Shown: piece by piece, positions 23,206 through 61,195 of the stretch | How positions within the stretch are numbered: position 1 is the first letter of the stretch | Layout: every line of letters begins with the position of its first letter | Origin: Catajapyx aquilonaris | Lineage: Eukaryota | NCBI GenBank assembly: GCA_000934665.2 | Contig: JYFJ02000731.1 | Coordinates: 1-64,000, forward strand | Length of the DNA: 64,000 bases | Reading direction: 5' to 3' | The notes under the pieces: model-generated | Databases searched by the model: none | The model's input: the letters and a program-made list of their open reading frames with translations, nothing else | What the model was told of the DNA's origin: nothing | Position numbers and translations under genes: made by a program

Positions 23206-29025
<5,820 letters not shown>

Positions 29026-30389: not shown

Positions 30390-30624
30390 AAGGCAGTTGG
30401 TCGAGTTTTTAAAATGAGAGGTTTTAAAAATGTTGTGTTCCAAATTAATGTGGATTTGACTTAATCGGCAATAAAGCAACAGGCTCAGAAAAAAAACCAC
30501 GATTGTTTATAGCGGATTTATGCTAATTTTATTAGTTGAGGAAACCAATTAGCCCTCGCTAATGAATGGGTGGTATTTAAATAACGATGGATATTATTTT
30601 TTTCTGCGAAACTATTGAGTTGCC

Positions 30625-32115
30625 TATAATAATTGTGCATAACGTAACAGCAAAAACCTGTACATATCGAAATATCTCGGTGCCGTAAATATTTTCTGAA
30701 ATGTACATGGCCAGCAATATCTTCAGTATGTGTTATTACATTTCGGACTTTTCCAGCTGGGCACTTGAAAACTAGAGGAAATCCCTTGGGGAAATCCACT
30801 GCATTCCTGAGGGCTTAAAAAATTTATTTCTGGTTCATGTTCCACCCCTCAAGTACAGTACATGACTCACTTGTACGCTGTACATTTGAGCAAGGTCAAG
30901 GGGGGGAAAAGTGCACATGAAGGACTAAAAATATCTTTGGGGCCCACCCTAACCAGAATATTTTTCATGTCCACTTTAGGGGATTGCACATGTTTTCGTA
31001 TCATTTGACGCCAAAAGTCTTCCTGAGTATATTACCAGTGTTAGAAATTACATTATTGAAAGCTACCTATTCTGTGTGATTATTTAAAAAAAAAAACTGC
31101 CAGTACAGGAATATTTCCAGCATCATTCAGTATCACCGATAATTGAGCGTAATATTTTTCTCATTATTATATGCACTTTTTGCACAAAAATGTGTCACCT
31201 GAAGCTTAACAAGCATCCATTTAAAAAAAAAATCCAATTCTTGTTGGTATTATTTTGACAATATAACTCGCAAAGGATTATGATTAGTTTAGTAACTTGG
31301 AATTAGGTTATACATTTTAAAAAATAGTTAAAATAATTTAGGACTCGCTTTTAAAAAAAAGATGGGAAAATAACGTATCAATTGAGGATGTGATTACATT
31401 TTTTTCTGCCTTGATGTTCATAATTATACACTGATGCTTTTTTAGAAAATTTAAAGCCTGCTGCGAGATACTATTAAAATATCGGCAGCCCTGCGTTATT
31501 ATCTGATAGGCCTAATGACCTGGCTATCATCGTATGGTATTAAGATTTGTAATCATTATTTTTTTCTACTATTGAATAGCCTAATAATTGCGCATACATT
31601 AAAACTTGCACATATCTCGGTGCCGTAAATATGTTCCGCAGCTGACATGTTTCCGCTATATTTATTGTCCGCAATAGCTACATTTCATTGCATTATTATA
31701 TTCGGACTACTCGCCAGGCACTTGAAACAAAGGTATATGAAAAATCCACTGTATTCCTTCGGCTTTTAAAAATTATTTCTGGTTCAAAAAGTGGCATACC
31801 TCTGCCTCCCCTCCCCTCCTAAAGTACACGAGACTCTTGTACACTGTACAGTACATTAGAGCAAGGTCAAGGGGGGAGAAAGTGCAAAATGCAATGTCTA
31901 AAAATATTTTGGTCCCCCCCCCCCCCCGGGTGAGGAGGGGGCCCACCCTATAACCAGAAGATATGTCCACTTTAGGGAATTATCCAGGTTTTAGTGTATA
32001 CTCCGGCTTCAGGTGACGCCAAAAGATATACATTACTGAAAGCTACATATTCTGTATGATTATTATTTACAAACTTATAAACTGCCAATATATAGGAATC
32101 TTCCCAGCATAATTC
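30625..32115 (+). repeat. Diverged direct duplication of about 500 bp (about 30625-31125 and 31580-32115)
   Basis: Collinear shared blocks atatctcggtgccgtaaatat, gcaaggtcaagggggg, gggcccaccct, tgtccactttaggg, tgacgccaaaag, gaaagctac. Confidence 0.8.
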
Positions 32116-32570
32116 AATCGCGACAATAGTGATTCCCTGTAAATAACGGATGCACTCGAAGCTTGCTCAATTGAAGAAAATGCGATTATTATTTACCGTG
32201 TTTTGAGAGCCGAATTTTCATTGCGTTTCTGTTCATATGAACAGCAAATATTTTTGCATAACAGAGTCCGATTTGGACATATTGCATAATCATAAAACCT
32301 TGATTGCAGCTGAAATTATTTTTGTGTTCTCTCAAAAAATATATATATTTATTAATTTTTTCGGAACGTCCTGGATGTGCCGATTTTTTTGGGGGGGGCA
32401 GTACAGCCCGCTATAATAATATTTAACTGCGTAAAACCTGCTCTAATTTTGTTAATATTGCGGGACTCTAGTTATGTCCATTTCCTTAAAAATTTTGAGA
32501 TGTCCAAAAATCCCCCCTCTCCAGTCCATTCTTCTCAGGATAGGTCCTCTGGAATGACCCTCAGGACCGG

Positions 32571-32623
32571 CCAATCCGAGCGAGCCCTCCAGTGCCCTTT
32601 CACCCCAAACCGGACTATAAAAA
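32571..32623 (+). promoter_or_regulatory. CCAAT box and TATA box upstream of the RING gene
   Basis: CCAAT at 32571-32575 and TATAAAAA at 32616-32623, about 120 nt before the ATG at 32743. Confidence 0.7.
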
Positions 32624-32742
32624 GGGCAGCCTTTGACCACGGTGGGAACATTATCAAGCCAGCTGGACACCTCGGAAGATCTCTAGTCAACATCAGCTGA
32701 AGCCATAACATCGCCTGGATTCAACCTGATCTTTGTTGCCCG

Positions 32743-33315
32743 ATGGAGTCCGAGTCTGCTAGACGTCCACTGCCTGGGGACATCGCTGCTGCATTGTCCT
32801 GCGTGGGTTGCGCTGCCATCAGAGGGAACAAGGGCCTCGTCCTGTGCCGTACCGGACACAACCTGTGCGCGTGGTGCGCCTGGAAGCACCGCTGCCCGTC
32901 CTGCTCTTCTCAGCTGACCACCACCGCTCCTAACCGCACCGGGATGGACATGGTCACCCTCCTCGGCCTGCTGTACGAGGTGCCCATGGTTAACGGGCCT
33001 CCACCGTCGCCGCCACTGCCCAAAGCCTACGACGGTCTCCCGGTACGACAGGTCAGCATGCCGGAGCCTGGGATCGACGTCGCCACCTACCACTCGGTCG
33101 TCGACCAGGAGCAGATGAGATGGCTGCCCAGCGTCGTCTGTGACGACGAAGCCCACACGGAGATGTACGACGTCATTGTCATATCCAGGATCAGCGAAGA
33201 CGGGTTGGAGACCAGGACCGTCTACCGGTACGACGGACCCAGAGAGGGCCATCTGTTGAGGCGGGAGCTGCCCTTGGTACACCGGATCACCCTCGAGGCA
33301 CCCAGCATCTACTGA
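32743..33315 (+). CDS. Intronless SINA/Siah-type RING finger protein (190 aa)
   Basis: CVGC-x11-CRTGHNLCAWC-x5-CPSC..NRTGMDMV resembles the Siah C3HC4 RING (CxxGHxxCxxC...CPxC..RNxAME). GC-rich single exon within AT-rich flanks. The C-terminal half is not recognisable as a SINA substrate-binding domain. Confidence 0.8.
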   Translation: MESESARRPLPGDIAAALSCVGCAAIRGNKGLVLCRTGHNLCAWCAWKHRCPSCSSQLTTTAPNRTGMDMVTLLGLLYEVPMVNGPPPSPPLPKAYDGLPVRQVSMPEPGIDVATYHSVVDQEQMRWLPSVVCDDEAHTEMYDVIVISRISEDGLETRTVYRYDGPREGHLLRRELPLVHRITLEAPSIY

Positions 33316-33362
33316 GATCATCATCAAGATCATCATCAAGATCATCATCATCAGATTACGTA

Positions 33363-33408
33363 CAAAACGGCCCTTTTAAGGGCCAACCACACTGTTCAAA
33401 TGAGAGAA
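33363..33408 (+). terminator. Replication-dependent histone mRNA 3' processing signal (stem-loop + histone downstream element)
   Basis: CAAAAC-GGCCCT-TTTA-AGGGCC-AACCA (stem-loop 33369-33384: 6-bp stem, 4-nt loop), followed 13 nt later by purine-rich AAATGAGAGAA. Confidence 0.85.
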
Positions 33409-34043
33409 TATGCGCAAAAGACAGACCAAAATATTTCAGTAGTTTCCACTTTTAATAAAAATGCAATTAAAAAATGTAACATCTTGCAGAAAAATAATTG
33501 TCATGTAAGGTACATTGACAAAAAGAATGTATTAATTAAAGCTAAATAAAAATTGTAACGACACGGAGCAAAATTGTAAAAAAAAAGGTATTCAAATGAA
33601 AAAGTGAATAAAAATGTACTTGTAATGACTGAGAAAAATGTAATTAAACCGAAATAAAATTTTTTAATAATACGGAAAAATGTGTTATGGAGTTACTTAT
33701 TTTGGGCATTTTCATATCAGCAAACATGATATTCGAAGACATACTTTTTTTTAGGTACAAATCAGTTGGGTTATTGTTAAAAATATTTTTTTTAGGAGTG
33801 TCTGTAGGCCAGCATGCTGGCGTCAAGAGAGTTTCTTCTCTTATGTGCATTTATGTGATTCCTCTGATCCATAATTGAAATTTCGGTACTACGATAATGC
33901 ACACGGAGCATTTGACAATTTGTTCCTATGTGCACATATTCCCATCATGCACTGTGTCAAGAAGTGGGGGGAAGAAAATAGGTAAAACTATTTTGACACT
34001 TGACATGTTACTAGTGGCTTCGAGTCTTGTTGATGTGTGCAAC

Positions 34044-40723: not shown

Positions 40724-43700
40724 ATGGCCGTTTCCATAGCATCAGGTAAATTTAAATTCTGTTTTGCGATAATACCCGGACCACACTACGCCGTCCGTTT
40801 TATTTCTTCAATCGAGCAGGAGCAGATGACAACCGACGAGAGGCGATGAATCGCAGGCAGTTGTACCAGCCTCAACACCAGCAGGCGAAGACTGGCAGGA
40901 ACAGCAAGCCTAACAATAGCCAGGAGGGGAATGCAACGACCCACGATGCAAGGATGGCCTTACTGAGACAAGTCATCCGTCGACCGACAGTCGTCAAACA
41001 GGGAGATGCACCTGCTGGACATGCTACTGTTGGCAAGGTTCGAAAAATTAATCACAATTCGAATATAACGTCGCTACGTCAGTGGTCTTTGTAAGTACGC
41101 TACTAGCAGTACTATTAGAAGTTACTAAGTATGCTGCTAATAGTACTACTAGTAGTTACTAAGTGTGCTACTAGCAGTATTACTAGAAGTTACTAAGTAC
41201 ACTAGTAGCAGTAAACCATGCTACTAGCAGTATTACTACTAGTTAACTAATTACACTACTTGCAGTATTACTACTAGTTAACTAATTACACTACTAGCAG
41301 TATTACTACTAGTTAACTAATTACACTACTAGCAGTATTACTACTAGTTAACTAATTACACTACTAGCAGTACTACTTCTTGTTACTAACTATAAGTATG
41401 GTACTAGTAGTTACTAACTATAACTATAAGTATGGTACTAGTAGTTGCTAACTATAACTAAGTATGGTACTAGTAGTTAGACCTACTATAACTAAGTATG
41501 CTACTAGTAGATTTATTAACGATAAGTATGCTACTAGTAGATTTATTAACTATAAGGATGCTACTAGTAGATTTACTAACTATAAGGATGCTACTAGTAG
41601 ATTTATTAACGATAAGTATGCTACTAGTAGATTTATTAACTATAAGGATGCTACTAGTAGATTTATTAACGATAAGTATGCTACTAGTAGATTTATTAAC
41701 TATAAGGATGCTACTAGTAGATTTACTAACTATAAGGATGCTACTAGTAATTACTAACTATACGCTATTAGTAGATTTATTAACCCTAAGGATGCTACTA
41801 GTAGATTTACTAACTATAAGGATGCTACTAGTAGATTTACTAACTATAAGGATGCTACTAGTAATTACTAACTATACGCTATTAGTAGATTTATTAACCC
41901 TAAGGATGCTACTAGTAGATTTATTAACTATAAGGATGCTACTAGGAGATTTACTAACTATAAGTATGCTACTAGTAATTACTAACTACCTAACTATAAG
42001 TATGCTACTAGTAATTACTAACTACCTAACTATAAGTATGCTACTAGTAATTACTAACTATACGCTACTAGTAGATATATTAACTATAAGTGGAATTTTC
42101 GTCCTGCTGCTAGTTATTGCTCACTTAGAAGCACCAGACTGTGTTTGCAATATTGTACTAATAAGTTAGCAGTTGCTAGCAGTGGGATGAGCATAAATTA
42201 TTCGACCCAGTAGTTATAAGTGGGCTACTAGCAGTATTACTAGAAGTTACTAACTGTGCTACATACTAGTAGTTACTAATAGTGTACACTGGTGGAATTT
42301 TCGTCCCACTGCTAGTTACTGCTAACTTAGCAGTACCAGTGTTAGTAATAGTACTGCTGATAAGTCAGAGTAAATTCGACACCATATTTTCTCCTGACAC
42401 CTTATTGTAGAGCCATGCCAAGTCCGAAGTCCCTTATTCTGGACAACGCAGCGGGGTGGCGTCCGGCAGGGTCGGTTTGGCCGGCAGTTCCGCTCAGTTG
42501 AAGGATAAGAAGTGGAGGTCAGGGTTGAGCAGACTCAGCCGAGCTCCACCCTGGAAGGACCCCAAGGCGGAGCTGGTGCAGGCCAGCGCTGTTGCCCCTT
42601 CTCCTTCCAGGGACTTCTTCAGGATGGTGGTCACCAGCACAAAGGTCAGGTTCGCTCTAATAGAAGCCTGAATCATTTTATGAAGCAAATTCCCCTGTGA
42701 CGCAGGTCACCATATCCCACTGGCCCATCGCACACTCCCTCCTGTTCTCTCCGCCTCCTCGAGAGTCCTCCAGCAGCTTCGAGGACTTCCTGGAGGACGA
42801 CGACATGCAGTCCGACATGTCCAGGATATTCGGTCAGCATCAACTCCTCTCTATACATTTCTACTGTGGGTTTTATATTATGAACTGTCTGTTTCAACTC
42901 CATCTGTCTTTTTATTATAGGGAACACTGTCTTGAGCTACGTGAACAACATGTGCAGGGGACACTTTGACTACTTCCCCAGGCTGGACAGCGCCATCCTG
43001 AATCAGATACTAATCTTTCTTCCCATTAGTGACATTGCCAGTGTCGCCAGGACATGTCGCAGGCTGTCGCAGGTTAGTTAACCTAGATTGGAATTAGTTA
43101 ACCTGGATTTACATCACGCAACATTTGTTAACATGGACTAGTAACTAACCTGACTTCATTAACATGTCAAGGTGGTTTAACACATGTTAACACGGGTTAA
43201 CGTTTAACCTCGACTGATTACATGTTAACCTGGGATATCACCTAGCATTTTTTTAAACTTGGGTTAACACCATCTAAGATTTGTTATCCTGGGTTAACAC
43301 AGTTATTGTTTATCTGGGTTAACAGCATCTAATATGTGTAAAGCTACATGCTAACAATCTCACAATAAATTGTTAACCTAGGTTGACACGCAGGTTAAGC
43401 CAACACCATTATTTTAACAATGTTAACATCTGATGCAATGTTAACACCTGATAATTAACATGTTAACACATTCTGATATGTTAACATATGATATCATTTA
43501 ACATAATGTTAACCTTTGTTAACATTATCCCTCACTATGCTAACATAAGTTAACAGCATCTAACATTTGTTAACGTGTGTCAACATCGTCTACTGGTATA
43601 TCATGTAAACCTGTGTCAACATCATCTAACATATGTTAACCTGGGTTAACATTTGATTGTTTGTGATGCAGGTGTGCCGAAGCAGCGAGTTGTGGGAGCG

Positions 43701-48116: not shown

Positions 48117-50397
48117 ATGATGACGTCCGATCCGTCTCCATTGGTTTTCATACCCAACAACATGATGATGCCTCACAAAAACGGACTTCAGGTGCACTCA
48201 ATTGTCTCTCGGATCTTGCGATACCCTGTTTAACAATCTCGTTATTTCAGCCGGGGCCGTCTTCTCCGTCGTTTGAACTTTGGGGCTCACCGTCCAGGTT
48301 TCCGAAGGTGATGGCCGAGTTCTTTGCGATCACAAACCTTCCTGGGAAAAAGATGTCGGCTCAGTGCAAACTCTGCGGAAAGACGTACAAGACCGTCCAG
48401 GGGATTACATCGAACCTACATCGACATATGAGGGTGATTAATTGCTAAAGTGTCACGATCAATTCATGTTCATATCATTATTGGTCGACAGCCAGCAATT
48501 TGTTGACAATGAGTCGTTATTGTTTTGCAGAAATCCCATGAAGAAGTATACGAGGAGATGAAAGGAGGAACCGAAAGCCGGAAGAGAAGGCAGCCTTTGT
48601 TCGTCAAGGAAAGGGATCTCCCCAAATTTGAATCAGATCACCAGAAACAAAAGCAAATAACGGAAGCCATCCTGGACTTCATTTCCGCATCGATAATCTC
48701 ACCGAGCATTGTCGACACCGTGCCATTCCAGCAGCTTCTAACTGCTGCGGAACCTCGTTTTAACGTTCCGAATTGCAAATCTTTAACTTCGGATCTGATC
48801 GGAACCCTCAACACCAAAGTGAAACCAACGATAGCCAACGAGCTCAGAAATGCTCCGAAAGGAAGTGTTCATATCTTAGTGGAAGTTTGGGCTGCCGAAA
48901 GGGAAGGGTTTCTGTGTGCGAGAAGCATGCATGTGAACAAAGAGTGGGAACTGAAGAAGTGTAATTTGGGATCGAAGTATTTCCTCGGTGAAATACCTGC
49001 GGAGAACAAGCAGGCCTTTTTGAAAACCATGCTCTCGGAAGCTGGGCTGAACATGGAGGATGTTGGATATTGCGTGGCCGATGTTCCTCGGAGCATTATT
49101 TCCGCTACTAATATGCTCCATGAATCAAGCCAGTCTTTGTTAACGGAGCAAATACTTTTGCATGAAGATCTGTACGGGCTTGGAGCGACTGAAGGCGATC
49201 TGGGACTGAATTGTGTGGTGCATGAACTGAATTTGGTTGTCCGTGATGCGTTCAGGAGCTGTCCATCTGCTACGGCAACACTGAAGCAATTGGGCGAAGC
49301 GATTACGTTCATCAGAAAGAGTCAGGACCTCACTGGAAAGCTGCTCCGAAGCGCAGGGGTCGACTTGTCAGGAGATGTATGGGGAAGCAAGTCAGTCCTG
49401 GAAATTATCCGAAGCATCTCGCAGGTTAGAAGGCTCTTGTTTTGTACTTCGGCTAGAAATCTTGACGCTGATTTGTTACAGGAATATGCGTTTACGGCTT
49501 TGCGAACGCTGCTGACGGATATGTTGTCGGCGAATACCCGATGCGACCTTCTTGAACTAGTTGCCCTTCTTAGGCCGTTCGAGGAGGCTACGAACGTGCT
49601 GCAAGGTGACGGACTGACCTCTCCGTGGGTAATACCAGCCATATTTGGAATCGACAGAGGTAATGTTCACACATGTAACTGCAAGTATTTTTTGTAAAAC
49701 AAATCTGTTGGCATTTCCAGCTCTTCGAGATGACAAAACTGAACGGAATGCAGCTTTGAGGCAAATCTTGAGGGACGGACTGAGGAAGAGATTTGAAAGT
49801 GTTGTTCACCATAAAGGATACATTCTTTCCTCGTTGCTGGATCCAAGGTTGAAACTGTCGGCTTTTGCAAACGGACAGGCCGAGCCTCTGCAGCCGGTCA
49901 GATTGGATGCGGTTTTGGTCCTGAAGGCTGCTGTGGCGGAGGAAAAAGGAGGCGAGTTGGACGAAGAGCATAAGTCGGATCAACAGAAGCAGGCTCAAGG
50001 TACGTAGGTCCTGAATTACGACTTATAAATACTGAAACGTTATACTTTTAAAGGGCCGGAGAGCAGTTTTTACACGGGCATCCTGAGCTTCCTGGACTCG
50101 AACCGCGAGGTGCATCAGACTGATAGCGAAGTGGACAAGTACATGGAGGAAGCCCGAAGCAACGAGAATCCACTGGAGTACTGGAGAGCCAACGAGCGAA
50201 GACTTCCTCGGCTGGCTCAGCTGGCAAGGAAGCACATGGGGATACCTGTGTCGTGCGGAGGGAACATGAGACTCGCTTGTCGTTCAGGAGTCGCTCCGGA
50301 TGTTGTGAAAGCTTACATGTGCCAGGGAGGAGCGGAGGTGAAGGAGGCGCTTCTAACGTGCAAGTGGTGCAAAGGATCGGAACCCAGTGGCAGCTAA
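48117..50397 (+). CDS. Domesticated hAT transposase / zinc finger BED protein (ZBED-like), multi-exon
   Basis: BED finger AQCKLCGK..SNLHRHMR|KSH; hAT motifs CVVHELNLVV, LLRPFEEATNVLQG, LLDPRLK and dimerisation domain NPLEYWRANERRLPRLAQLARKHMGIP; several introns; no terminal inverted repeats seen. Confidence 0.85.
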
Positions 50398-53600: not shown

Positions 53601-56600
53601 CGATCTTACGTATCTCGAACCTACGTAACTCGAAGCGTAACGATCGATCTTACGTATCTCGAACCTACGTAACTCGAAGTGTAACTGGATCGATCTTACG
53701 TTTCTCGAATCTAGGTACCTCGAAGCGTAACTGGATCGATCTTACGTATCTCGAACCTACGTAACTCGAAGCGTAACTGGATCGATCTTACGTATCTCGA
53801 ATCTACGTAACTCGAAGCGTAACTGGATCGATCTTACGTAACTCGATACGTACTTCTTCAAGTTTACGTAACTCGATACGTATTTCTTCAAGTTTACGTA
53901 ACTCTACATATGTACTTCTTTAAGCGTCATTAAGTTTTCGTAACAAGGAACGTTATGTATCAATAAACATATACGTAACTCGCGAAAGATAATAACTCAA
54001 GTTTACGTGGCCCGAATCTACGTAAGTCCGGGACTCCTTGTACTACTCTACCGTGTGTCTCATAACGTAGCTAACCTGCAGCTCCGCAGCTGGACTCTTC
54101 CCTGACCACAGTTGACTCCAGTTCTGGTTCCGGTTTGTTGTTGACGTGTTGTTGTTGCTGCTGCTGCCCTGCGGCGTCCTTGTTGTTGTCTGGCCCACCG
54201 TTGGCCTCAGGGGCGGACTCGAAGGGCTTGAGGGCTTTGACTATGAAGTAGGTTTTGAGGCCCGCTGTCCTCAGGGCCTCCTCTCGCTTCTCCCCGTGAG
54301 CCGGCTCCACTTCAAAGTCGCTGCTCAGGAACCCCAGGGTCCTCTCCGATATGTGGACGCGACTGAAACGCGCAGGAGATATTAAATAAACAGGATAGGA
54401 TATCTATACGAATGTGGGTTGCCGCGCGTGTCTTGTGTGCATGGGTTGCCAAGCAAGCCTCCGAATAATGTAATCGAATCCGTCAAAAACAAACCTGACT
54501 CAGCTGAATTCCCCCCTCCAATTTTTGGAGGGGTTTTCCCCCTTTGATCAAATCCCCTCCACTCAATCAAGTGGGTCCTACCTTCCCCCCAATTTGTCCC
54601 TGTCCGAGGGATCCATTACCTCCAGAGCTCCTCTTCCCCTTTCTCCCAAAAGTCAACATCTTGAACTCCAGTCGAGTCCCTAGGAATAAGTCACGTCACA
54701 TGCTCTCTGATTGCTCATTACCAAGTCAAATGACCCCCTTGTAGCTGATGACACGCCCATGAATTACAGTCCCCAAGTTCGACTCTTTGTTAACCGGAAC
54801 ACACTCCGCCCTCATTCTGTCGCTTTTTATCACACACACCATTTAACCAGTGTTATTCAGACGATGTGGACAAGCCACTGAACAACTTGGGCTCAAAATG
54901 GCGGCTTACACCCTCTCATTTTACGTGCGATTAACGAGTCTCCGCATCCCCGGATGTGGCGCACTGTACCAAATCTCATTCGGACGGACGACTTCTGAAC
55001 CGTTCTGAACCTACCTAAACTGCCCCATTCAGCCCCCCGTCGGAAGATTCGCTCACCATCCACCCGAATGCGCTTTGGTACACTGCAAAGTGTATTCGGG
55101 CGGATGGTGGGCGTATCTACGGAAGAGGTCTGAATGCGAATTGACAGTTTCGGTAGGTTCAGAACGGTTCATAAGTCGTCCGCCCGAATGCGATTTTTGG
55201 TACAGTGTGAGACTGCAGCGCCAAATCCGGGGTGGCGGAGGACTTGTTAAGAGCACGGGTGTATCAATTGTGCATTTTCAGACTGCAAGTGCCCGTGCGA
55301 GTACACTATGCGTTAGTTTAAATCAATTACGAATCCCTTTGCACAACACGTGCAATAAACGCTGTGGGGCTTGTTGTCCCATCAGGAATGGCTGTGGTCG
55401 GTGTAACCAACGGCAGCTCATTTCCGTCTGCTTTAGGTTACACATCTCCATCCTTTGCCTACTGCTTTGTGCCGTGGAGTCTCATGTGGTTTGGCCACGG
55501 CACACAGGAAACTGTTTGTGGACACTTTGGAGGTCTGTTGACACGAGTCTGCCATTGTCAACGCCTCCCCACTTAACATCGCTCCTTTACACACACAACG
55601 AGTATGTCAACTTGTACTAGTACAAGCTTTGTTTCGTATCATTCTAAGCTCCCGGTCGTGCGACCGATGCTTAAATCGTGAGGGGGTAGACTGTGCTCAT
55701 TTCCCCGACTGTACGACTCACCCTGGTAGTCCGCTGCTCTCCATCTTGTTGGCAAGTTCGACGTCGCGAGAGTAGACGTCAAACTGCCACTGTCGTTGGC
55801 CCAGAACTCCGGCCAATATCGCGCCCGTGTGAATGCCCACTCTCATGTCCACCGGAGAATTGGTCTTCTCACGGACGTATCTGGAGAGAAAATATTACAA
55901 GCCTTTACGATTTGATCATCGGTCGCACGACCAAACATTTCTGTCGGTCGCAAATCGTATGGTCGTGCGACCAACGCTCAAATCGTGAGGGCGACCCTGA
56001 GAATAAAGACCTGCTCACGACTTGAGCTTTGGTCGCACGACCAGACGATTTGCGACCGATAGAAATGTTTGGTCGTGCGACCGATGTTCAAATGTCGGTC
56101 GGAAATCGTCTGGTCGTGCGACCAACGCTCAAATCGTGAGGGCGACCCTGAGAATAAAGGTCTGCTCACGACCTCACGATTTGAGCTTTGGTCGCACGAC
56201 CAGACGATTTGCGACCGACATAAATGTTTGGTCGTGCGACCGATGTTCAAATGTCGGTCGGAAATCGTCTGGTCGTGCGACCAACGCTCAAATCGTGAGG
56301 GCGACCCTGAGAATAAAGGCCTGCTCACGACCTCGCGATTTGAGCTTTGGTCGCACGACCAGACGATTTGCGACCGACATAAATGTTTGGTCGTGCGACC
56401 GATGTTCAAATGTCGGTCGGAAATTGTCTGGTCGTACGACCAAGGCTCAAATCGTGAGGTCGTAAACAGGCCTTTACACTACTGCCACTATCATGGTCGT
56501 GCGAGGGGTTGTGGTACTAGAGGTGATGACTGACCCCGGACAAACAGACTGTGGGCCAGGTTTATACGTACTTGATGGCTCGGACCATGGATAGCCCCAT

Positions 56601-59600
56601 GTGAACACAGAGGATTGCGTGGTCCGGCCTCTCTTCCGGTGCGCCGCTGATGCAGTAGTAGCAGTCGCCCAGGATCTTGATTCGCAGCTGGTGGTATTTC
56701 TGCAGACATTGCATAAGCAAATGTGTAATTAGGCGCTGTGTAAAGACTAATTAGCGCCGCTTACTTTACTTGTGTTCATGCACCTGGAGAACAGTATGTC
56801 AACAATGTGCATTAATTGCATCGTAATTGCGCGAAAAAAAGAGATTGAATCATCATTTATATGCAAAGCCATCGAAATCGACGGCTAGAGACAAGGATGA
56901 TGGATTGATTGGCGTAAATTATATGGTGAGGGGCAAAGGCTCGATATTCGCACAATTTTTTTTTTCTTCTTCACTCCAGCTCGACGCGTCCTGTCGACGC
57001 GGTTTCCATTTAATGGAAATCGATATCTTTTTCGTACAGAATCGGGCTTAATTATGTCTTGAATGGGCCCACTCGACAAGGGATGTCTTTTCCCCCATTT
57101 GACGACACTGCTTTAATTAGTGAGCTGCGCCGCCCAACTTTTACCCAATGGTTGCACTGACTATAATCATTCCAACGCTCGCACATAAAAGGGGGGGCTT
57201 GTCTAATCAGGAATTTAAGATAATTAAGACGAAAGAAGCCGTTATATCGCACATCATTTGCATACACATGATGGGTGAAAAAAAGTCGTAAAAATATCAC
57301 GCATAGAATAAGCGTGATCACGTCACTCATAGCCTATACGCATATAGTCACGCATGAATTTTTTAACGAGCGCAACCGAATACGCACCGAAGTTCGCGCA
57401 GAGTGCAGATTTGGCATTATCACAATGATAGCTGGAAATCTCTCTGCATGGTGGGTGTACATCCAGCTTACGTTTCTCGAATCTAAGTAAGCCGAACGTA
57501 TCTCGAATCTAAGTAAGCCGAGTTCATGTAACTCGAATCGCTTAAGTCGACTGTTACGTATCTCGACTCTACGTAAGCCGAGTTCACGTATCTCGACTCT
57601 ACGTAAGCCGAGTTTTACGTATCTCGAACCTCGTAGCTCCTGTTTACGTAACTCGAAACGCAACTCGAGTTTACGTAACTAGAATCAGGTAAGTCGAATT
57701 TTAAGTATCTCGAATATACGTAACTTAAGTTTTCGTAACTCGAATTTACGTAACTTAAGTTTTCGTAACTCGAATATACGTAACTAAAGTTTTAGTAACT
57801 CGAATATACGTAACTAAAGTTTTCGTAACTCGAATTTACGTAACTAAAGTTTTAGTAACTCGAATATACGTAACTTAAGTTTTCGTAATTCGAAATTACG
57901 TAACTCGAGCTTACGTATCTCGAATCTACGTAACTCGACGAGCTTGTGTCTCGAATCTACGTAACTCGACGAGCTTGTGTCTCGAATCTACGTAACTCGA
58001 CGAGCTTGTGTCTCGAATCTACGTAAGCCGAGTCAACGTAACTCGAGCTTACGTTTCTCGTAATTTACGGAATTTTGTATTGGTAAATAAGCGATGCGCA
58101 CTATTATTTCCAACGCTACGATTGGAGGGGAACAATATGGCCGACGTTTGCGACGTTGCCAATGCTCTGGATGGAACCTCAGAGGTTATGAGTGTGAATT
58201 ATTATGTGTCATCTGGCGAGTAACTCTGGCAACGTAGTCAGAACATCAATGGAGCTGCGCGAGTGTGGGTGCGCACTCGGTTGAATTCGTTTAAAAAAAA
58301 AGAAAAAAGAAATCTCGTCACGTATATTTCTGCACGTTTATTCCGTTTGATCCCCCAGCTAACAAGGGCAGTAACCGGACTCCAGTCCAGAAGACAAATG
58401 TGTGACAATTTCTTTTCCCGTTTCCTCTCCGGGGAACCGAATCATCAGATGTAACTGGAGACAACTGGTGAGAAAGAAAGGAAATGATTGGGAAAGCTAC
58501 TCACATCGGCCAATTTGTCAAACCTGGCGAAGAGCTCGTTGAGTATGGCGACCAGTTCAGAGGCTGAGTAGGACGAAGAGATGGCGGTGAATCCAACAAT
58601 GTCTGCATACAGGATGCTGCAATCAGATAAGGAGTTATTAGCACGTTATGTACACAGTAAAGATTTTTTTTTTTGGGGGGGGGGGGCCATAATTTATATT
58701 ACTTGATGAATCACTAACCTGACATTTTCATGTCGACTCATGTAGATACGTTTGAATTGTCCGTCTCCGGTTTGTCCCCATTCTTGGCGCATCTTGACGG
58801 CCAAGTGCTCCGGAAGCACCGACAGCAGCAGTCGCTCCTTCAAATAACGACAACAACAAACAACATCAGCGACTATAGCATCAGCAGCTTTCCCTTATCC
58901 ATCAGCCAGGCTTGACATTTTGTACGAATCAAGATTGAGAATCTGACTTTTTTTTAGCTGAAAAAGTAGGGGGGAAAAAACGTGACGCGACTCGACCATG
59001 CTTTTAAAAGGTTGCTTTCTACCAGGAAAAGGACGTGACATGAGAGAGAGTGAGCTAGAGAAAAAATGTGACGCCTAACTCAAGTTTTGCTGATGAAAAA
59101 AATGCTATAGGTTTTTATAGTCAGTTGGCAACTTCAATAGTAATGCGATTTGAACGTTTAGAAGACGAGGAAAGCTTCTTGCACTTTGTCAAATTATCGG
59201 TTCTTTGATTATACGGAAACTCGAATATACGTAACTCGAGCTTACGTATCTCGAATGTATGTAAGCCGAGTTCACGTAACTCGAATCGCGTAAGTCGACT
59301 TTTACGTATCTCGAATCAACGTAGCTCAAGTTTACGTAACGAGAATCACGTAAGTCGACTTTTACGTATCTCGAAACGCAACTCAATAAGATTACGTAAC
59401 TCGAATCACGTGAGTCGACTTGTACGTATCTCGAATCACCGTAGCTCAAGTTTACGTAACTCGAATCACGTAAGTCGACTTTTACGTATCTCGAATCAAC
59501 GTAGCTCAAGTTTACGTAACGCGAATCACGTAAGTCGACTTTTACGTAACTCGAATCAACGTAGCTCAAGTTTACGTAACGCGAATCACGTAAGTCGACT

Positions 59601-61195
59601 TTTACGTATCTCGAATCAACGTAGCTCAAGTTTACGCAACGAGAATCACGTAAGTCGACTTTTACGTATCTCGAAACGCAACTCAATAAGTTTACGCATC
59701 TCGAATTTACGAAACTTAAGTGAACTTCTCTGGAAACGCAACTCAACAGATATATTAACCACAGACATTAACTTGATTTCATATTCAAATAATTTTTTCT
59801 TCATAATAATACAAGTAGACCTATCGCAATAGCTTTAACAGTTAAATCACGAATTGTGTAGTGTTTGATGATGATAATTCAGATTAACTTCTGTTCAGAT
59901 ATTTAATGAAATTTTGTGCACATTTGGACAAGGTTGGTTCTAGAATTGCGCCTCTTATTGTTGTGTGTTTTATGGCGCTTTCTTTTTGGAGGCGTATCAA
60001 CGTATAAAGGGAATGATTAACACTCTGCAAACACTAATTACAGACGCGTTTGATTTATTAGATTCATGGCTGTGACAGTTTAACCTCCTGTTTTCAGAGG
60101 TGAGGCGGAATTACTGGCCAATTAATTTTCTCAATGAGTTTTCGACACTCAAATGGGCAAAACGTCACATCTGAAGCGAATTTAATTCCGCAGTGTTTGT
60201 GCGCTTCATTATATTTTCTAAACTGTGGTCATCTTTGAAATGTGCAAGAATTATGCAAAAAAAAAAAAAACCTTTTTCTCAACTATCGGTATATAGGAAA
60301 ACCGACTTTCCTCTTTTGAACTTATTAATAGGAACAACCTCCACCAAGAAAAAAAAAAAATTATTGATGCTCGTGATGAAAATGATCCTGGACTTTTCTT
60401 TGAGGTCGTTTGGGTCAATTTACACAAGAGTCTACAAAGGATGTGTGCCAGGGTCGTTTTTTTGTTGATGCGAAACCTCCGCATTTCTCAGTGGAAGTAA
60501 TTACTAACGATGTAAAAAATGAAGAAAAAAATAAATCACATTATTGAACTATTAAAACCCATATCAGGGAGCGTAATATACTACATAAGAGGCGCAAACA
60601 TTCGATTTCCGCGTCTCTCTGTTTGAGACGTTGCCAAGGCTGGCGGCCATTTTGAAGTGGGGGCACCGCCAACGAGGTATAAATAGGGTACAGGCAAAAA
60701 TAGGGTCCGCCATCTTTGATTCGCGCGTGTTCTTGCCGTGTAGTTGCCATGGCCGCCAAAACCATCAAAGATGGCGGACCCTATTTTTGCCTGTACCCTA
60801 TTTATACCTCGTTGGCGTTACCCACACTTCAAGATGGCTGCCAGCCTTGGCAACGGCCCCAAACAGAGAGACGCGAACATCACAGGCGCCGACAGAAGTT
60901 TGCGCCTCTTATGTAGTATTATTATGCTCCATGCCCATATGACGGAAAAACCGCAATTGAATTTCATAATTTCGCAATTTTTTCACTTATGATCGTCACA
61001 TTTAAAAAAAATAAAAATTCTATCAATCTCTCATAGTATAAACGGGAAAGTTTGTCCGTATGTTTGTATGTCCGGGTTACCTAACCCACTTTCGGACTAC
61101 CGAGAGTTTGAAACTTTGCACACAGATGATGATGATGATGCCCCAAAAAATGAAGAATTTCCCCCTGCTTTCAGCGTGCAGTGTGACTTGAATAT

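Follow-up and report, generated by a model that had tools for sequence, protein, structure and literature searches.

To our knowledge, the 3′-terminal hairpin of histone mRNAs is thought to be reserved in animals for those messages. The locus described here, part of a 64,000-nt stretch of Catajapyx aquilonaris contig JYFJ02000731.1 that was analysed as a whole (hereafter the window), raises the question of whether the same signal can belong to a gene of a different kind. On its forward strand, a reading frame for a RING protein is preceded by CCAAT and TATA boxes and followed by a hairpin of the histone type. A coding gene that encodes no histone, yet has the full histone 3′ signal in its lineage-typical form, would constitute a natural exception.

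Layout and coding potential of the RING gene

The elements of the unit all lie on the + strand and were located where the original prediction had placed them. A CCAAT box (GGCCAATCC, 32571–32575), whose promoter role is suggested by its position, stands 45 nt 5′ of a TATA box (TATAAAAA, 32616–32623). Transcription presumably starts about 30 nt 3′ of the TATA box, near 32648–32652 (AACATTAT), which would leave a 5′ UTR of about 93 nt (32650–32742); from that presumed start (~32650) up to the reading frame, no other ATG intervenes. The ORF itself runs from ATG to TGA without an intron (32743–33315) and encodes 190 residues, corresponding to a predicted protein of ~21 kDa with a pI of 5.85. Past the stop codon comes a microsatellite of about three copies of GATCATCATCAA (33316–33353), then the hairpin, and then, 70 nt past the stem, the first AATAAA (33454–33459), a possible back-up polyadenylation site that had been announced at about 33454. 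Further AATAAA copies follow within 200 nt downstream of the hairpin. Immediately upstream of the unit lies a tandem duplication of ~970 bp.

By its composition, the ORF looks like a genuine coding sequence. The frame is open over 204 codons without interruption and its GC1/2/3 values are 0.60/0.50/0.80; a GC3 of 0.80 is limited to the RING frame, and the GC3 of nine neighbouring exon frames is 0.49–0.67. Overall GC content is 0.63 in the ORF versus 0.36–0.39 in the flanks, with an abrupt fall past the stop codon. Two other interpretations of this stretch were considered and rejected. An antisense frame of 222 aa has no Pfam match, shows a GC3 (0.61) lower than its GC1 (0.73) and is oriented opposite to both promoter and hairpin. 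The possibility that the ORF is the terminal exon of an upstream gene conflicts with an in-frame stop at 32698–32700 and with the lack of a splice acceptor with a pyrimidine tract.

RING domains follow the consensus spacing C-x2-C-x(9-39)-C-x(1-3)-H-x(2-3)-C-x2-C-x(4-48)-C-x2-C. Residues 20–54 (32800–32904, + strand) fit this C3HC4 arrangement as C-x2-C-x12-C-x3-H-x2-C-x2-C-x4-C-x2-C, with all eight ligands intact; the RING takes seven of the eight cysteines of the protein, leaving one outside. When the protein was shuffled 200,000 times the Cys/His spacing never arose, and among the 439 stop-free frames of at least 60 aa in the window only one has the pattern. The original prediction had called this RING SINA-type, and the two halves of that description fared differently: the RING spacing is perfect, whereas the SINA-type label is weakly supported. 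Pfam scores Sina_RING at 12.2 bits against a cut-off of 29.3 (E 0.21) and zf-C3HC4_3 at 15.0 bits against a cut-off of 27 (E 0.022), both sub-threshold, and the nearest Atlas clusters, all of them Sina_RING or RING, reach 0.89 at best, which we treat as a lead only. Neither SIAH zinc fingers nor a TRAF-like domain was detected by Pfam in the 190-aa protein, and a separate Atlas comparison of residues 62–190 gave no usable match, the C-terminal ~130 residues matching nothing in Pfam or the Atlas. Structure prediction, which had been proposed as a check for the protein, gave a single-sequence AlphaFold2 model with a mean pLDDT of 34 that is uninformative on structure. The product would be a small RING-HC protein, with a Sina-like RING joined to ~130 residues of unmatched fold, and would probably act as an E3 ubiquitin ligase or as a ligase adaptor.

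The gene reads as lineage-restricted. A near-length word search yielded no protein homologue, phmmer against 1.84 billion representatives returned no match at E ≤0.001, the exact protein sequence is absent from a collection of 15 billion, neither viral nor metagenome contigs yielded a relative, and PDB sequences produced only chance matches to antibodies and lysozyme (E 0.055 or worse). This absence of homologues is weak evidence, because the collections seem to lack both the host and its near relatives: for MED30, the best matches with a name come from insects, at 62–78% identity over the domain, none of them near-identical.

The hairpin and its counterparts behind histone genes

By its make-up, the stem-loop GGCCCT-TTTA-AGGGCC (33369–33384, or 33362–33389 with flanks, + strand) is a bona fide histone-type signal. 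Its 6-bp stem starts with GG, its 4-nt loop has U at positions 1 and 3, and it is bordered by ACAAAAC on the 5′ side and AACCA on the 3′ side; the hairpin is where it was originally described, 53 nt after the TGA. On both strands of the window, no other perfect 6-bp/4-nt GG...CC hairpin has U at loop positions 1 and 3. The number of matches to the 16-mer expected from 100 shuffles is 0, and the hairpin is present in both the MFE and the centroid folds of the 3′ UTR. The Rfam Histone3 model (RF00032), a check proposed from the outset, matches 33364–33409 with 33.0 bits, at E 4.6e-8 when 251 nt are searched and E 1.2e-5 when the whole window is compared with all 4227 Rfam families; this is the sole Histone3 match in the window. 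The score is 1 bit below the Rfam gathering score of 34 bits, so a default Rfam search omits the hairpin.

How little this shortfall means became clear from the comparison with hairpins behind histone genes. The 23-mer 33365–33387, which includes both flanks, is identical to the hairpins behind 28 Pfam-confirmed histone genes from metagenome contigs (27 core-fold and one linker), found among 39 hairpins in 32 fetched loci, and in the fetched contigs this core is shared with hairpins behind H1, H2A, H2B, H3 and H4 genes alike. Adding four hairpins whose ORFs are cut by locus ends gives a set of 32 histone-adjacent hairpins, with RF00032 scores from 24.1 to 39.2 bits; seven of them reach the gathering score of 34, 25 stay below it and ten reach 33.0. 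Since true histone-adjacent hairpins score anywhere between 24 and 39 bits, missing the threshold by 1 bit is meaningless. The distance from stop codon to stem is 53 nt here versus 11–40 nt in the fetched loci, when measured from the frame nearest each hairpin. The spacer is similar to the one of a true H2B gene, L020, with 91.9% identity over 37 nt.

Beyond the stem, 13 nt of separating sequence lead to the purine-rich candidate histone downstream element AAATGAGAGAA (33398–33408, + strand), the very position at which it had been reported. The element occupies nt 14–24 past the stem, which falls inside the 7–29 nt span covered by the comparators, and within it a GAGAGAA run begins 18 nt past the stem. 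In 25 of 37 distinct fetched flanks the first purine run of at least 5 nt is found 7–29 nt past the stem, with a mode of 13–14 (CCTGAGAGCA in L026 and L028 is an example of such an element), and the run considered here starts 4–5 nt later after the stem than its counterparts in the best-matching histone set. According to PMC5054213, the conserved U7 box is UCUUU. AGAGA can pair with this box through one G-U pair, the box used being the conserved one, from which that of the host may differ. The exact complement of UCUUU, a second AAAGA, is situated 33 nt past the stem (33417–33421, + strand) and is probably too distant to be the main element. From the known mechanism, cleavage would be expected at about 33388–33390.

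Other non-histone reading frames with the same hairpin

The hairpin is not unique to the window in standing behind something other than a histone gene. It also stands behind six complete ORFs of non-histone type that are spread over five public contigs (WLWI01013928.1, WLWI01085578.1, MOXF01003426.1, MOXH01002544.1 and PJEL010059461.1). One of these ORFs, L005, encodes a RING-H2 protein (zf-RING_2, E 2.4e-12), and L025 is its paralogue, in which the middle of the RING has been lost and the hairpin kept. L021 encodes a Harbinger-type transposase (DDE_Tnp_4, E 5e-33) and has an identical hairpin with 29 nt from stop to stem. The family of the other three is unassigned; two of them, L015+ and L015−, form a divergent pair in which L015− has its own hairpin, and L014 and L015 are near-identical copies, therefore providing no test of constraint. 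All six are short and intronless, with 16–40 nt between stop and stem, and their hairpins are identical or near-identical, scoring 32.5–36.3 bits with RF00032. TATA boxes are present upstream of four of the six (L005, L014, L015+ and L015−) and CCAAT boxes at L014/L015, both of which have GGGCCAATCA boxes 5′ of TATAAATA; L025 has a weak TATA-like box only, and the promoter of L021 falls outside its locus. As a separate observation, L005 adjoins a fragment of a non-LTR reverse transcriptase. Unlike the shared hairpin, the proteins encoded by these ORFs have no sequence relationship to the RING protein of the window; they belong to other organisms, and their transcripts are, like its own, putative. 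Even the RING-H2 of L005 differs, being C-terminal and placed after an acidic region, whereas the RING in the window is of another type and in another position.

A literature search returned no description of non-histone genes with the histone hairpin, although older histone-mRNA surveys could mention cases. Because the same arrangement exists in other DNA records, the SLBP/U7 pathway may serve more than histones. We would go one step further, in a proposal that we regard as tentative and rate somewhat short of an even chance: in some invertebrate (probably arthropod) lineages, SLBP and U7 may not be exclusive to histones and may serve a small regulon as well, whose non-histone members share the build of histone genes and include ubiquitin-ligase-like RING proteins and a Harbinger-type transposase; these genes would thereby gain S-phase-coupled or maternally stored expression without poly(A). 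If this is true, RING proteins of the regulon may have histones or newly assembled chromatin as their targets, and in the transposase a mobile element would have tied its timing to DNA replication. More generally, such an exception draws attention to proteins (including RING ligases) whose amount cells may have to keep in fixed proportion to histone synthesis, and it suggests that the histone 3′ signal can be borrowed by mobile elements. Annotation that seeks hairpins only behind histone genes, as in a 2026 preprint, would miss genes of this sort.

Proposed expression of the gene and competing explanations

The explanation that we favour, giving it a little better than an even chance, is that the window harbours a genuine lineage-restricted, intronless RING gene with 3′ ends of the SLBP/U7 type and with AATAAA as a back-up. 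RNA polymerase II would transcribe the gene from the CCAAT/TATA promoter, SLBP would bind the hairpin (33369–33384) and U7 snRNP would pair with the purine element (~33398–33408), whereupon CPSF73 would cut about 4–5 nt past the stem to yield a non-polyadenylated mRNA of ~740 nt. Such an mRNA may be made, translated and destroyed alongside histone mRNAs, either in S phase or as part of maternal stores. The position of the RING gene outside any histone cluster counts against this explanation; PMC4896052 associates efficient U7 processing with the histone locus body. Because of that position, some of its transcripts probably read through and receive their poly(A) at the AATAAA at 33454 or later. 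The original prediction spoke of captured histone-type 3′ processing. For the signal as such, this is borne out by the identity of the 23-nt core with that of 28 histone genes and by its recurrence; the processing itself is what we infer from them.

Could the hairpin and promoter instead be leftovers of a histone gene? They might have been left by a histone gene that died, or by a histone unit that exchanged its coding region for another, and stand beside the RING ORF by accident; we consider this highly improbable. The distance from TATA box to hairpin, ~770 bp, is indeed about the size of an H1 unit (the H1 of L008 has 225 aa), and the promoter is laid out as in histone genes. Yet Pfam reveals no histone similarity in either open frame, and tblastn with H1, H2A, H2B, H3 and H4 from the fetched loci found no histone coding sequence in the 64 kb (best E 0.48), in agreement with the earlier statement that no histone-fold ORF is nearby. 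There is also no room for a remnant, because the interval from stop to stem is only 53 nt and mostly microsatellite, and the other non-histone examples make the association a repeatable one. The idea of a replaced coding region, which had been entertained originally, is thus unsupported, and the same applies to its companion, the idea of viral or selfish cargo. That the unit is cargo or a derivative of a mobile or selfish element exploiting the histone hairpin for S-phase or germ-line expression seems to us improbable: a search for terminal inverted repeats or long terminal repeats around it turned up nothing convincing, it is present in a single copy within the 64 kb, none of the genes next to it encodes a transposase or an integrase or is viral, and viral contigs yielded neither a relative of the protein nor a match to the 23-mer. 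These observations have to be set against the transposase ORF of L021 (DDE_Tnp_4) with its identical hairpin, the reverse-transcriptase fragment beside L005, the ~970-bp tandem duplication directly upstream, and the character of the ORF itself, a compact orphan without introns whose high GC content sets it off as an island from the AT-rich DNA around it.

The remaining explanations concern the activity of the unit rather than its origin. We see a slim chance that it is non-functional, whether because it is young and arose de novo, because it is decaying, or because it is a silent pseudogene in which ORF and signals are intact by chance. The protein does lack a homologue in the searched collections and a confident fold, and L025, having lost the middle of its RING yet kept the hairpin, indicates that such units decay; the strong codon-position bias, the uninterrupted 204-codon frame, the eight intact RING ligands, the absence of an upstream ATG and the intact TATA box, CCAAT box, hairpin and purine element nevertheless all argue for a working gene. 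It is also unlikely, though by no means negligibly so, that the gene is real and its hairpin little used or unused, the product being an ordinary polyadenylated mRNA that ends past the AATAAA at 33454 or later. The hairpin would in that case be a 3′-UTR element, to which SLBP perhaps still binds in support of translation or stability, or else a neutral relic. However, one would not expect a perfect, lineage-typical hairpin to persist idle when both its flanks are in place and a purine element lies within workable reach, and the design recurs at other non-histone ORFs. What speaks for an idle hairpin is the AATAAA 70 nt past the stem, together with several further copies inside 200 nt, although chance AATAAA hexamers are frequent because the flanks are AT-rich (GC 0.36–0.37). 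The purine run, moreover, begins 4–5 nt later than that of the closest histone set, counted from the stem, no histone genes occur in the 64 kb and the locus is outside a histone cluster. A precedent for such polyadenylation comes from PMC2781718: if SLBP is lacking, the histone genes of Drosophila are polyadenylated at cryptic sites located downstream.

Returning to the favoured explanation of a RING gene with SLBP/U7-type 3′ ends, the gene lends itself readily to testing if the hairpin by itself gives other mRNAs histone-like regulation. Its relation to known systems is a mixture of likenesses and differences. With the SINA/SIAH E3 ligases the protein shares the C..GH..C..C...CP.C look of the RING, for which Pfam and Atlas give weak leads, and it differs from them in having neither SIAH-type zinc fingers nor a TRAF-like substrate-binding domain. 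For U7 acting on non-histone RNAs with HDE-like motifs there is a precedent in human cells, where according to PMC11417402 U7 snRNA represses LTR12 and lincRNAs. Unlike the RING gene, this case involves non-coding repression without an SLBP hairpin and not the formation of the 3′ end of a protein-coding mRNA. The parallel with Drosophila histone genes is that an AATAAA within ~70 nt of the hairpin could here yield putative polyadenylated read-through forms. Another comparison is with animal replication-dependent histone genes. Although the ORF encodes a RING protein, stands alone outside a histone cluster and undergoes histone-type processing only putatively, the unit resembles those genes: it is compact and intronless, its promoter has the TATA/CCAAT layout, its 3′ UTR is short, and its 6-bp/4-nt hairpin lies between A-rich sequence on the 5′ side and an ACCA-type flank on the 3′ side, with a purine-rich element downstream.

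Layout of the RING unit and its genomic setting

Every element named in the original prediction is present when 32200-33800 is read and its ORFs are listed, all on the forward strand: CCAAT (32571-32575), the TATA box TATAAAAA (32616-32623), a 190-codon ORF from ATG to TGA (32743-33315), the hairpin GGCCCT-TTTA-AGGGCC (33369-33384, flanked by ACAAAAC on the 5′ side and AACCA on the 3′ side), the purine element AAATGAGAGAA (33398-33408) and a first AATAAA (33454-33459). By position, the presumed start site lies near 32650, some 30 nt past the TATA box, and no ATG stands between it and the ORF in the sequence read. The microsatellite GATCATCATCAA makes up most of the 53-nt 3′ UTR between stop and stem. 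The window holds one copy of the unit, located between a kinase gene and a topoisomerase gene on the same strand as both, and no convincing terminal repeats around it. Directly upstream of the RING promoter, at 30590-32500, a ~970-bp unit is present in two to three tandem copies, with seeded pieces 82-92% identical.

The window is animal DNA. Its protein-coding content includes MED30, protein kinases, an Ig-domain receptor tyrosine kinase, a Myb/SANT gene and a type IA topoisomerase with Top1 zinc ribbons. A selenocysteine tRNA (tRNA-Sec) gene is found at 378-463 (+; Rfam, 80.6 bits), and a sub-threshold mir-9/mir-79 precursor at 1236-1350 (+; 39.6 bits, gathering score 58.6, E 7e-4) sits just upstream of the MED30 exon 1531-2157. 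At 48513-50394 (+), a hAT C-terminal dimerisation domain (E 4.7e-7) occurs in long open frames, which we read as a hAT transposase remnant or domesticated copy. An inverted-repeat element occurs twice (28404-28842 and 60589-60942), and the listed ORFs of the two copies translate alike. It is probably a MITE-like repeat; the plant-miRNA matches that it draws are spurious (MIR1858, 70 bits, gathering score 137). Three minisatellite arrays (41492-42169, 55978-56533 and 59189-59832) are open in several frames, and the ORFs listed there translate into repetitive sequence.

The predicted protein

The product of the ORF is very probably a RING-HC protein. The ORF forms a GC-rich island in AT-rich DNA (GC 0.63 versus 0.36-0.39 in the surrounding DNA), and this richness is codon-phased (GC1/2/3 of 0.60/0.50/0.80; nine exon frames nearby have a GC3 of 0.49-0.67) and falls right past the stop. 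An antisense frame of 222 aa was rejected as a gene: since its GC3 is lower than its GC1 and it has no Pfam match, it is a by-product. The RING pattern, C-x2-C-x12-C-x3-H-x2-C-x2-C-x4-C-x2-C at residues 20-54, takes up seven of the eight cysteines, arises in none of 200,000 shuffled versions of the protein sequence and occurs in 1 of 439 stop-free frames of at least 60 aa across the window. Of the predicted "SINA-type RING", the RING half is thus very probable. Profile matches are weak: Pfam gives zf-C3HC4_3 at E 0.022 and Sina_RING at E 0.21, both under the cut-offs, and the neighbours in a protein atlas of clusters, all RING or Sina_RING clusters, stay at or below 0.89. "SINA-type" is therefore a lead only, and SIAH orthology can certainly be dismissed. 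For the C-terminal 130 residues, neither Pfam nor the atlas gives a match, and the structure prediction that had been proposed alongside HMM searches is uninformative (single-sequence AlphaFold model, pLDDT 34).

No homologues were found in protein collections, in viral contigs or in metagenome contigs, and a collection of 15 billion sequences does not contain the protein. The closest named relatives of the window's MED30 come from insects; they share 62-78% identity across its conserved domain, with no near-identical match among them. This fits an arthropod whose proteome, like those of its close relatives, is probably lacking from the collections. For that reason the absence of homologues is weak evidence for a true orphan.

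The hairpin in histone and non-histone units

The Rfam Histone3 model (RF00032) aligns end to end over 33364-33409 with 33.0 bits (E 4.6e-8 on 251 nt; E 1.2e-5 for both window strands and all Rfam families). The expected Histone3 match is thus there, 1 bit under the gathering score of 34, so that a default search omits it. The hairpin is the sole Histone3 match and the sole perfect hairpin of its type in the window, and it forms in both MFE and centroid folds.

For calibration, the exact 23-mer covering the hairpin and both flanks (33365-33387) was sought in public metagenome contigs, yielding 32 loci with 39 distinct perfect hairpins. Pfam assigned 28 of the 38 frames ending just upstream of hairpins to histones (27 core-fold, one linker) and two to non-histone families; of the eight without a family, three are truncated at locus ends and by eye resemble histone tails, and L031 is doubtful. 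One hairpin, at a locus start, has no frame. Given 28 Pfam histone frames upstream of an identical element, the window's exact hairpin is, on sequence criteria, one that some animals use as a true histone hairpin. The H2B of these contigs has what we take to be an arthropod-like look. Counting four more with histone ORFs cut by locus ends, the 32 histone-adjacent hairpins score 24.1-39.2 bits; ten reach 33.0 and just seven reach 34, and therefore the 1-bit shortfall carries no weight.

In 25 of 37 distinct comparator flanks, the first purine run of at least 5 nt starts 7-29 nt past the stem, mostly at 13-14 nt (...TTTTCAAAGAGC... in L020; ...CCTGAGAGCA... in L026 and L028). Downstream of its stem the window reads TTCAAATGAGAGAA, in which CAAA occupies offsets 13-16 and GAGAGAA offsets 18-24, and its identity to the H2B flank of L020 extends to 37 nt at 91.9% (BLAST). 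A survey describes the UCUUU box of U7 as universally conserved (PMC5054213). The AGAGA of the window element, a candidate histone downstream element, can pair with that conserved UCUUU.

Complete non-histone ORFs precede six of the 39 hairpins, spread over five contigs, with RF00032 scores of 32.5-36.3 bits. The 134-aa protein of L005 (WLWI01013928.1) is acidic in its N-terminal half and carries a RING-H2 at its C-terminus (zf-RING_2, E 2.4e-12); a TATATAAG box precedes the ORF. Its paralogue L025 (WLWI01085578.1) likewise combines an acidic protein with the histone hairpin; the middle of its RING is deleted, leaving RING-H2 intact in L005 alone. L005 also carries a non-LTR reverse-transcriptase fragment at 3-947. 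In L021 (PJEL010059461.1), a DDE_Tnp_4 (Harbinger-type) transposase ORF of at least 370 aa (3-1245; E 5e-33) stops 29 nt short of a hairpin (34.2 bits) that matches the window's exactly, and may represent a mobile element or domesticated transposase using histone-type 3′ processing. L014 (MOXF01003426.1) and the plus strand of L015 (MOXH01002544.1) have ORFs of 106 and 108 aa without a family match, with GGGCCAATCA boxes and TATAAATA upstream; being nearly identical over >1 kb, these loci are uninformative on constraint. Divergent from the 108-aa ORF, on the minus strand of L015, lies a Cys-rich ORF of 132 aa, which has a separate TATAAAAG and a separate hairpin (loop TTTC). The pair is arranged head to head (20-1057) around a common promoter region that contains three CCAAT boxes and two TATA boxes; the hairpins of the two ORFs score 32.5 and 34.1 bits. 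This layout is like that of an H2A-H2B pair, but the cargo is non-histone. No relationship was found between the proteins of the non-histone loci and the window's RING protein. At the level of sequence, the histone-type unit with other cargo is repeatable, and RING proteins recur as cargo. Elsewhere in the set, an H4 gene adjoins the 3′ end of a eukaryotic 28S rRNA gene (L018, 1785-2423; 536 bits) and a U2 snRNA gene adjoins histone genes (L004, 2082-2272; 174 bits).

Proposed processing and alternative explanations

On balance, we lean slightly towards a RING gene with histone-type 3′ processing and histone-like regulation. By analogy with established histone pre-mRNA processing, SLBP would bind the hairpin, U7 snRNP would pair with the purine element and CPSF73 would cut 4-5 nt past the stem. 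The product would be a message of about 740 nt with no poly(A) tail, translated and degraded together with histone mRNAs. That the protein might act in histone supply or on new chromatin is a guess from the predicted co-regulation alone. As presented in PMC5054213, PMC2781718 and PMC8108526, histone mRNAs are the sole mRNAs processed via hairpin and U7, and SLBP is not tied to other, non-histone genes; a 2026 preprint on pathway evolution, as far as it describes its search, sought hairpins downstream of histone genes only. Among the papers covered, our literature search found no description of non-histone hairpin genes, though an earlier mention may exist. What appears new here is known machinery with unexpected cargo.

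A histone gene relic is very improbable: the 53 nt from stop to stem leave no room for a dead histone gene, and Pfam finds no histone family in either open frame of the unit. Moreover, tblastn with H1, H2A, H2B, H3 and H4 from the fetched metagenome loci found no histone coding sequence in the 64 kb (best E 0.48), bearing out the earlier statement that no histone-fold ORF lies nearby. The same distance and lack of matches speak against a hairpin left by an independent histone remnant, which the original prediction had raised against itself. That the unit is cargo of a mobile or selfish element is improbable, with the L021 transposase as a precedent that keeps this explanation alive; that a unit with so codon-phased an ORF is silent or decaying seems no more probable. 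A real RING gene with ordinary polyadenylation is unlikely, if less strikingly so. Histone-type processing would itself allow polyadenylated messages. Because the gene stands alone and, according to PMC4896052, processing factors concentrate at histone loci, a mixture would be expected of hairpin-end forms and read-through forms polyadenylated at 33454 or beyond. The latter would resemble the polyadenylated read-through forms reported for Drosophila histone genes without SLBP (PMC2781718).
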